Numbered from the stretch's first letter, positions 35,593 to 36,586 are shown. The stretch is 37,725 nucleotides of DNA from a virus (IMGVR_UViG_2721755725_000007), one strand, 5' to 3'. The notes: generated by a model from the sequence alone, not told the origin. Made by a program: numbers and translations.

Positions 35593-35661
35593 ATGTTTAG
35601 CATAAGAACCCTACTACCTATTAGCGCCAGCGTATCAGTTCCGACAAAACAATCTCGGTAA
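35593..35661 (+). pseudogene. 5' fragment of an unidentified gene cut by the IS1 insertion
   Basis: AAGAAAGAGG SD then ATG 35593; 22 codons (MFSIRTLLPISASVSVPTKQSR) run into the IS1 left end where a stop is created. Confidence 0.3.
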
Positions 35662-35711
35662 TGCTGCCAACTTACTGATTTAGTGTATGATGGTGATTTT
35701 AAGGTGCTTGC

Positions 35712-35987
35712 GTGGCTTCCATTTCCATCAGATGTCCTTCCTGCTCCGCTACTGAAGGCGTGGTGCGTAACGGCAAAAGCACTGCCGGACATCAGCGCTA
35801 TCTCTGCTCTCCTTGCCGTAAAACATGGCAACTACAGTTCACTTACACCGCCTCTCAGCCCGGTACGCACCAGAAAATCATTGATATGGCCATGAATGGC
35901 GTCGGATGTCGCGCCAGTGCACGCATTATGGGCGTTGGCCTCAACACGGTTTTACGTCACTTAAAAAACTCAGGCCGCAGTCGGTAA
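35712..35987 (+). CDS. insA: IS1 InsA
   Basis: 91-aa product [91 protein letters not shown] matches InsA. Confidence 0.9.
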
Positions 35988-36410
35988 CCTCGCGCATACA
36001 ACCGGGCAGTGATGTGATTGTCTGCGCTGAAATGGACGAACAGTGGGGCTACGTCGGTGCTAAATCACGTCAGCGCTGGCTGTTTTACGCGTATGACAGG
36101 ATACGGAGGACGGTTGTGGCGCACGTCCTCGGTGAACGCACTCTGGCCACACTGGAGCGTCTTCTGAGCCTGCTGTCGGCCTTTGAGGTCGTGGTATGGA
36201 TGACGGATGGCTGGCCGCTGTATGAATCACGCCTGAAGGGAAAGCTGTGCACGTTATCAGCAAGCGTTACACTCAGCGCATTGAGCGACATAATCTGAAT
36301 CTGAGACAACACCTGGCAAGGCCGGGACGGAAGTCACTGTCGTTCTCAAAATCGGTGGAGCTGCATGACAAGGACATCGGGCATTATCTGAACATAAAAC
36401 ACTATCAGTA
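35906..36410 (+). pseudogene. insB: IS1 InsB, disrupted by a frameshift (about 2-nt insertion near 36247)
   Basis: InsB frame terminates early at 36298 (...[21 protein letters not shown]), while the canonical InsB C-terminus ([25 protein letters not shown]...NIKHYQ*) continues in another frame to 36410; element is 770 bp versus the canonical 768 bp. Confidence 0.6.
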
Positions 36411-36586
36411 AGTTGGAGTCATTACCTAAAGGCCTCTCTACACTGTGCTTGTATGGGGCTTCCCTGATCATGGCGGTTATCTATGTAATAGCATATGTAC
36501 TTACGTGGTTTCTGAGGTGGTAGCGCGTAATATTATTTTATGTAAAAATATCTTGTAATCTTTAAATTTCATAACAAGGGCATGTC

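Follow-up and report, generated by a model that had tools for sequence, protein, structure and literature searches.

A pseudogenised IS1 at a rearrangement junction between a truncated espS and an imported ospG cassette in an ompW prophage of EHEC O111

How does an IS1 element come to lie between a gene that ends after 22 codons and an intact effector gene, with unrelated sequence on its two sides in place of a duplicated target? We addressed this question in a stretch of 37,725 nucleotides (hereafter the window), whose last 4 kb form the cargo end of a lambdoid prophage: gpJ, lom and two tail-fibre genes are followed by a truncated espS (espS'), IS1 and ospG. The window is 99.9% identical to, and collinear with, the ompW-integrated prophage of EHEC O111:H- 11128, with a copy of IS1203 as the sole exception. 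Positions 1-1256 of the window are themselves a copy of IS1203 (IS3 family), while 11128 has a second one between its holin and lysozyme genes that the window lacks (about 12756-12766); the source of the window is accordingly not 11128 itself but a close relative of it. The 11128 prophage looks degraded in its annotation, with minor tail protein L frameshifted, tail assembly protein T truncated and several genes partial. As set out below, the element is almost certainly a fossil IS1 of the IS1F type that marks a rearrangement junction within the cargo end of this prophage in ompW of EHEC O111. The features on which this reading is built are collected in Table 1.

Table 1 Features of the espS'-IS1-ospG region and its borders, in window coordinates.
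Feature	Positions	Strand	Basis
Terminator-like hairpin: perfect 11-nt inverted repeat, 5-nt loop, running into a T tract	35465..35491	+	Repeat search and sequence reading
espS' remnant: 21 native codons, hybrid codon (CGG) and TAA	35593..35661	+	ORF list, residue identity
IS1 (IS1F type), predicted non-autonomous	35657..36426	+	Terminal repeats, alignment to sister and related copies
IRL, 23 nt	35657..35679	+	Repeat search
insA, 91 aa, intact	35712..35987	+	Pfam and NCBIfam domain matches
A6C programmed -1 frameshift site AAAAAAC, intact	35963..35969	+	Read from sequence
insB' frame to premature stop; last 17 codons out of frame	35970..36298	+	ORF list, Pfam, conceptual translation
TG dinucleotide duplication (GCTG to GCTGTG), predicted inactivating lesion	36246..36247	+	Alignment to TW14359 copy
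Displaced C-terminal InsB segment in the third frame (Pfam profile positions 79-131)	36247..36411	+	ORF list, Pfam
IRR, 23 nt	36404..36426	+	Repeat search
92-bp spacer, part of the ospG cassette	36427..36518	+	Genome searches, Yersinia alignment
ospG, 196-aa OspG-family effector kinase, intact	36587..37177	+	Pfam OspG_kinase
ISL3-family element, degenerate 5' end with stops and frameshifts	37190..37434	+	Zn_ribbon_ISL3, PGAP, Yersinia collinearity
Conserved right end of ompW-integrated prophages (tail-fibre-assembly and DUF4376 pseudogenes)	37435..37725	+	Genome comparison

The bounds of the element are set by its terminal repeats, and the resulting length of 770 bp agrees with that given in an earlier, sequence-only reading of the window, whose range of 35593-36435 comprised IS1 together with the cut open reading frame (ORF) and the 9-bp flanks. 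The two inverted repeats (IRs), GGTAATGCTGCCAACTTACTGAT and its imperfect complement, match at 20 of 23 positions, and these two ends are the only matches to GGTAATGCTGCCAACTTACTGAT in the whole window, where none is expected by chance; a promoter-like match at 35664-35691 overlaps IRL. The copy has the features of the IS1 family in its length (close to 768 bp), in its imperfect IRs of about 23 bp (GGTRATG...CATTACC), in an InsA with zinc-ribbon and helix-turn-helix domains (Pfam Zn_ribbon_InsA and HTH_Tnp_IS1, PF03811 and PF12759; NCBIfam transpos_IS1, NF033558) and in an A6C site joining insA to insB', a motif whose role in IS1 has been described (PMC12903888, PMC12428005). Two family traits are missing, namely an uninterrupted DDE_Tnp_IS1 domain in insB' and a direct target duplication of 8-9 bp at the flanks. 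IS1 normally generates such duplications and transposes mainly replicatively (PMC12428005). The missing duplication is what is expected after a cointegrate, a deletion or a recombination event, and is no argument against IS1 identity. Judged on these features, the element is IS1 by descent, now a pseudogenised and presumably non-autonomous copy. Its identity is 98.8% both to the copy that lies beside ospG on Shigella pWR501 and to one in LC567836.1 that is annotated 'IS1 family IS1F', compared with about 90% for the IS1 of phage P1.

We then considered what the element interrupts. Upstream of it, the terminator-like hairpin, which was not flagged by a consensus terminator scan, probably closes the tail-fibre operon (stop codon 35449-35451), and this would leave the espS remnant with an upstream region of its own. 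An AGAGG motif (35584-35588) lies 4 nt 5' of the ATG of the remnant, and the TAA stop of its 22-codon ORF was created within the left end of IS1, in agreement with the earlier description of an ORF with a strong Shine-Dalgarno (SD) sequence cut by IS1 after 22 codons. The suggestion that this ORF may have been a cargo or effector gene also proved apt, as its residues 1-21 are identical to those of an intact 291-aa ORF of O157:H7 (locus L003:5094-5969), which starts MFSIRTLLPISASVSVPTKQS. The left flank (35500-35656) is present in 477 genomes and, where no IS intervenes, continues into a gene that PGAP names either 'secretion protein EspS' or 'hypothetical protein'. EspS is a protein of 291 aa that belongs to the OspB family and is translocated by the type III secretion system (PMC11507257). 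The family name used here comes from PGAP and that paper (PMC11507257); the Pfam and NCBIfam models gave no match even to the intact 291-aa EspS, and a search of solved structures and family models for EspS likewise returned no matches.

The search for the continuation of the truncated ORF thus led to intact espS loci encoding 291 aa, which adjoin nleG7 in prophages of O157:H7, O145 and O26. These loci have the same upstream region, SD sequence and codons 1-21 as the window, with 99.4% identity over 157 bp and all 21 residues identical; unlike them, the window lacks codons 22-291 and retains only the 22-codon stub. A full-length protein of about 291 aa with a conserved C-terminal (cysteine-protease-like) region, as expected of the EspS/OspB family, is not encoded in the window. 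The part of espS that directly follows the break point also occurs at a second locus in O111 genomes. From its sequence, the espS copy of the window is dead, and at most a 22-residue peptide would be made from it; the stub carries no RefSeq annotation.

Homology between the window and intact espS stops exactly at 35656, at the IS1 end, and the right flank of IS1 is not found in the 5 kb that follow intact espS. The element is flanked by AACAATCTC (35648-35656) on the left and TAAAGGCCT (36427-36435) on the right; intact espS continues ...AACAATCTCAATCCATCCC, whereas the window right of IS1 continues TAAAGGCCTCTC, and no boundary choice yields an 8-9-bp direct repeat abutting the element. Both earlier statements on this point, that the 9-bp flanks are not a direct repeat and that a rearrangement took place rather than a simple insertion, therefore stand, the latter because espS homology breaks off at 35656 and the sequence that follows IS1 is foreign to espS loci.

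The DNA to the right of IS1 has a different history. The spacer of 92 bp was confined, within E. coli, to the 115 genomes that bear ospG (megablast and blastn), and none of the GTDB species representatives had a match to it in a search with exact 24-mers. The ospG gene, known as ECO111_1634 (PMC5729918), encodes a protein that matches the Pfam model OspG_kinase (PF22303) over residues 32-183 with E = 2.1e-90, and window positions 36519-37176, which contain ospG and 68 bp upstream of it, share 91% DNA identity with ospG of Shigella pINV; the 92-bp spacer has no homology to the Shigella ospG upstream region. Behind ospG follows the ISL3 stub, which ends at about 37430-37434, is named a 'transposase family protein' pseudogene by PGAP and has Zn_ribbon_ISL3 as its only detectable part (E = 8e-8). 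From 37435 onward the window returns to sequence that is about 97% identical in some 850 genomes, APEC O1 among them.

A contig of Yersinia pekkanenii (NZ_CQAZ01000098.1) aligns contiguously to window positions 36452-37430 at 82% identity and ends at the position matching 36452; in it, ospG is followed by an intact ISL3 transposase of 406 aa in which zinc-ribbon, helix-turn-helix and DDE_Tnp_ISL3 domains are all present. This contiguous alignment argues that spacer, ospG and ISL3 stub have long formed a single unit. GC content is 0.33 for the ospG segment and 0.58 for the tail-fibre genes, and an ospG homologue of Erwinia tracheiphila also lies among transposase genes (an IS240-type DDE fragment and a split OrfB_IS605/TnpB). 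Base composition and the transposase contexts in Yersinia and Erwinia thus support the view that the cassette of about 1 kb (92 bp, ospG and the ISL3 5' stub) is imported. OspG homologues with 82-85% amino-acid identity were found in Y. pekkanenii, E. tracheiphila and Ca. Pantoea haifensis. An ORF of 36 codons (36413-36523) starts in the right end of IS1, crosses the 92-bp spacer and has a strongly hydrophobic tail (…LCLYGASLIMAVIYVIAYVLTWFLRW); possibly it is what IS1 has left of the 3' end of a small membrane-protein gene.

The Shigella ospG locus offers a partial parallel. On pWR501 and pCP301, an IS1 of the same isoform lies less than 350 bp from ospG, as IS1 is near ospG in the window, but there it lies inverted on the downstream side of ospG, with yacA as the gene before ospG, whereas the IS1 of the window is upstream; in addition, the Shigella locus has neither the 92-bp spacer nor the ISL3 stub. 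Other variants were seen around the gene. In the pINV-like plasmid of CFSAN029787 (locus L006, about 3550-4330), an IS1 of the same isoform interrupts ospG, and the two parts of the gene share 8 bp (window 37064-37071), as would be left by a true target duplication of 8 bp; this differs from the arrangement in the window. Some O157:H7, O145, O103 and O121 genomes have an ospG whose upstream flank matches the window only to 36583, and the one such locus examined, in PV15-279 (O157:H7; locus L008, 4158-4742), encodes a 194-aa OspG variant (WP_032156508.1) with a different start region.

To learn how widely the junctions are shared, we searched 5,426 complete E. coli genomes with 50-mers across each IS1 junction, which are unable to seed on one side alone. 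Both junctions were present in 114 genomes, that is, in 114 of the 115 with the ospG upstream segment, and the carriers include O157:H7, O111, O103:H2, O145, O45:H2, O121 and O39. Apart from the remaining 1 of 115, no E. coli genome in this set was found with the ospG upstream segment but without this IS1. In copies without the TG insertion described below, IS1 is annotated as intact in all three whose annotation was fetched. The presence of both junctions in 114 genomes of several serotypes argues that the rearrangement is old and has been shared among EHEC lineages along with the prophage arm.

Individual genomes show the module in other settings. TW05614 (O111:H8, NZ_CP077436.1) has, besides the TG-bearing copy, a second tail-fibre-espS'-IS1-ospG module with an intact 768-bp IS1, located in a second prophage and adjoining another integrase at an ompW fragment. 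In Z1323HEC0393 (NZ_CP148357.1), where homology to the window stops at 37512, a module with a 768-bp IS1 lies in a prophage beside intS and tRNA-Arg rather than ompW, from which we infer that the arm has moved between prophages by recombination. TR01 (O157:H7, NZ_CP033605.1; locus L007, 3180-4000) has at the same locus a K-12-type IS1 with about 92% identity to the window copy, bordered on both sides by unrelated sequence of equal length (26-27 bp); we rejected it as a variant junction, since it probably stems from assembly or polishing, with sequence of another IS1 locus patched in. None of the records in the phage collection contained the espS'-IS1-ospG module.

For the origin of the junction we favour IS1-mediated replicon fusion, to which we would give about an even chance on grounds of parsimony. 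An IS1 beside ospG on an IS-rich replicon would have transposed replicatively into espS, or would have crossed over with an IS1 already present in espS. In the resulting cointegrate, the left IS1 would be flanked by espS on one side and by its old donor flank (the 92 bp and ospG) on the other, an arrangement that leaves no duplication around a single IS1 copy. A single deletion reaching from within the ISL3 element to the end of the prophage would later have taken out what was left of the donor, together with the second IS1 and the 3' portion of espS. The structure now present has the espS promoter region and the first 21 codons left of IS1 and, right of it, the cassette of about 1 kb followed by the normal right end of an ompW prophage. 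The junction itself arose once, with an active IS1 of 768 bp, and has spread among EHEC lineages together with the prophage arm. We prefer fusion because it explains the missing duplication, the one-sided IS1 and the arbitrary ISL3 truncation with the fewest events. The 98.8% identity between the window IS1 and the pWR501 copy, which lies 350 bp from ospG, also speaks for this route, although the shared isoform is weak evidence for co-transfer because ospG itself is only 91% identical to Shigella ospG.

In their outcome, the classical rearrangements caused by IS1 (cointegrates, adjacent deletions and mobilisation of the Tn9 type) resemble the window closely: they too leave one IS1, flanked by unrelated sequences and lacking an 8-9-bp duplication, at the border of resident and foreign DNA. 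The far border of the foreign DNA in the window, in contrast, is a truncated ISL3-family element and not a second IS1, so the structure is not a composite transposon. We also searched the 5,426 genomes for IS1 copies with matching half-sites and found none: the reciprocal junction, IRR-AACAATCTC-espS3', was present in 0 of 5,426 at a coverage of at least 80%, and the TAAAGGCCT-IRL junction had no exact match, with inexact chance matches only. With neither a parental nor a reciprocal junction in these genomes, deletion and recombination between two IS1 copies are not directly separable. The IS1F-type copy of phage PPompW_EH2246 (LC567836.1; locus L016, 4001-4768) lies near the right end of an ompW prophage, beside espO, nleG and espM, and has no target duplication; we rejected it as a parental half-site, since its flanks, CATCAAATGG and CTGCGTGCGG, match neither half-site.

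Adjacent deletions by IS1 are classical, and the strongest alternative to fusion is that such a deletion occurred in situ, with ospG and the ISL3 stub already 3' of a complete espS: an IS1 inserted at one of the two sites would have moved to the other by intramolecular replicative transposition, deleting the DNA in between and leaving one IS1 between unrelated flanks. A deletion of this kind would account for the missing target duplication, for a break exactly at the IS1 end and for the presence of only one IS1, and it suits an element that transposes mainly replicatively (PMC12428005). However, it requires additional, unobserved steps, namely the prior arrival of the cassette, a separate truncation of ISL3 at the prophage end and only then the insertion of IS1, and neither espS together with ospG in one prophage arm nor any intermediate was seen in the 5,426 genomes (0/5,426). 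We therefore regard in-situ deletion as possible yet rather unlikely. The sequence-only reading had offered adjacent deletion or recombination between two IS1 copies as the cause; a rearrangement is upheld, while adjacent deletion does not come out ahead, since the right flank is an imported ospG cassette with an ISL3 remnant and fusion is at least as likely. A simple insertion of IS1 into espS, its target duplication mutated away or hidden under another boundary, has nothing to recommend it beyond the location of the IS inside a gene and is refuted, with next to no probability left to it, by the espS comparison and the Yersinia collinearity: what lies right of IS1 is not espS, is absent from intact espS loci and belongs to the cassette collinear with Yersinia, and the IR ends are unambiguous.

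We next asked whether IS1 may have been retained for the expression or control of ospG, whether by a promoter at IRR (outward-facing or hybrid), by transcription running on from the espS promoter or by binding of InsA. Such a role would fit the occurrence of this IS1 junction in 114 of the 115 genomes with the ospG upstream segment and the intact state of insA, the IRs and the espS upstream region. A single origin, however, predicts complete linkage just as well; about 160 bp upstream of ospG are the gene's own, the proximal 70 bp or so of these recur in conserved form in Shigella, Yersinia, Erwinia and Pantoea with no IS1 present, and promoter scans gave weak consensus matches only. Retention for such a role is accordingly improbable in our view. 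The roughly 60 bp 5' of ospG (36530-36586; TATTTTATGTgAAAATCTCTTG..GAT.TTTAAAT..CGTAAC.AAGG) are conserved in E. coli, Shigella, Yersinia, Erwinia and Pantoea, and are a candidate for a shared promoter or regulatory region of the gene. Conservation of the proximal upstream sequence across five genera without this IS1 makes it unlikely that ospG depends on IS1. A still bolder proposal, that IS1 feeds transcription into ospG or gates it via InsA, or else that the IS1-ospG-ISL3' block could be mobilised in trans between prophages, strikes us as slightly more improbable again.

The last event at the locus concerns the element itself. TW14359 (O157:H7, NC_013008.1, ECSP_RS09155) carries at the same site an IS1 of 768 bp whose flanks, IRs, insA, A6C site and orientation are identical to those of the window, and the sole difference between the two is the extra TG at 36246-36247 in the window. 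The 2-bp excess of the window IS1 over 768 bp is thus this TG duplication, and the alignment both confirms the indel and explains the frame change in insB that had been noticed near 36247. With insA in frame 0 and insB' in frame 2, the insertion places the C-terminal 54 residues in frame 1. As a result, the match to Pfam DDE_Tnp_IS1 is split at about profile position 81 of 131, with positions 1-83 in the frame of 35906-36298 and positions 79-131 in the frame of 36247-36411. RefSeq/PGAP labels follow the same division, the copy of O111 11128 being 'frameshifted' and the same-site copy of TW14359 a 'programmed frameshift'.

Conceptual translation with -1 slippage yields an InsAB' of 195 aa in the window, the last 17 of them out of frame, compared with 232 aa in TW14359, and 768 bp and 232 aa are also the sizes of the reference IS1 and its InsAB' (PMC12428005). 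The window protein would lack the last 50 or so positions of the DDE domain. Within the lost InsB segment is the motif IERHNLNLR, which probably holds the catalytic Glu. On this translation, the 770-bp IS1 is unable to make transposase, and the earlier judgement that its transposase is probably inactive gains a predicted cause in the shortened InsAB' and the divided domain. The element keeps InsA and both IRs, and at most it could be moved in trans. The IS1 transposase does act in trans, more weakly than in cis (PMC12903888).

We determined the distribution of the lesion in the same 5,426 complete E. coli genomes using a 40-mer centred on the TG that is unable to seed on uninserted copies. The insertion was found in 47 genomes, with one copy in each, and every carrier with a serotype label was O111; O111 chromosomes have only two IS1-like places. 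Recurrence of the TG in 47 independently assembled complete genomes rules out a sequencing error. The single copy per genome and the O111 labels argue that the lesion is real, that it arose once and that it never spread to another locus, and the frameshift is a trait limited to an O111 lineage, whereas the junctions themselves are wider. After the junction had formed, a slippage duplication of TG in the O111 lineage thus shortened the predicted InsAB' from 232 to 195 aa.

Could the 770-bp form instead be a natural, intact isoform or a sequencing artefact, with a functional transposase? Programmed frameshifting in IS1 means that a naive ORF scan always shows two frames, and to that extent a split insB is to be expected. 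After the normal -1 shift, however, the TG still puts the C-terminal 54 residues in a third frame, the Pfam domain is divided, the same-site sister copy of 768 bp gives the canonical 232 aa (PMC12428005), PGAP flags a frameshift and 47 independent assemblies share the lesion, in each case at one and the same locus. The sister-copy alignment, split domain and shortened InsAB' refute a natural 770-bp isoform, and we consider this reading practically excluded. The account as a whole, in which a fossil IS1 marks the junction, replicon fusion produced it and the TG duplication later disabled the element, is in our judgement the best explanation and a reasonably probable one.

The finding, a pseudogenised and annotated IS1 on a shared scar with a known effector gene to either side, is already known in kind and largely in detail. 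It does not change the understanding of IS1, ospG or espS, and its significance is minor. For the prophage, the consequence of the junction is the loss of this espS copy, and it explains the absence of a working espS there, while ospG keeps its own conserved upstream region. The TG duplication provides a clean single-locus marker of an O111 lineage, and the ospG of E. coli is seen to sit in an IS-bracketed cassette of foreign origin that is found in Yersinia as well.
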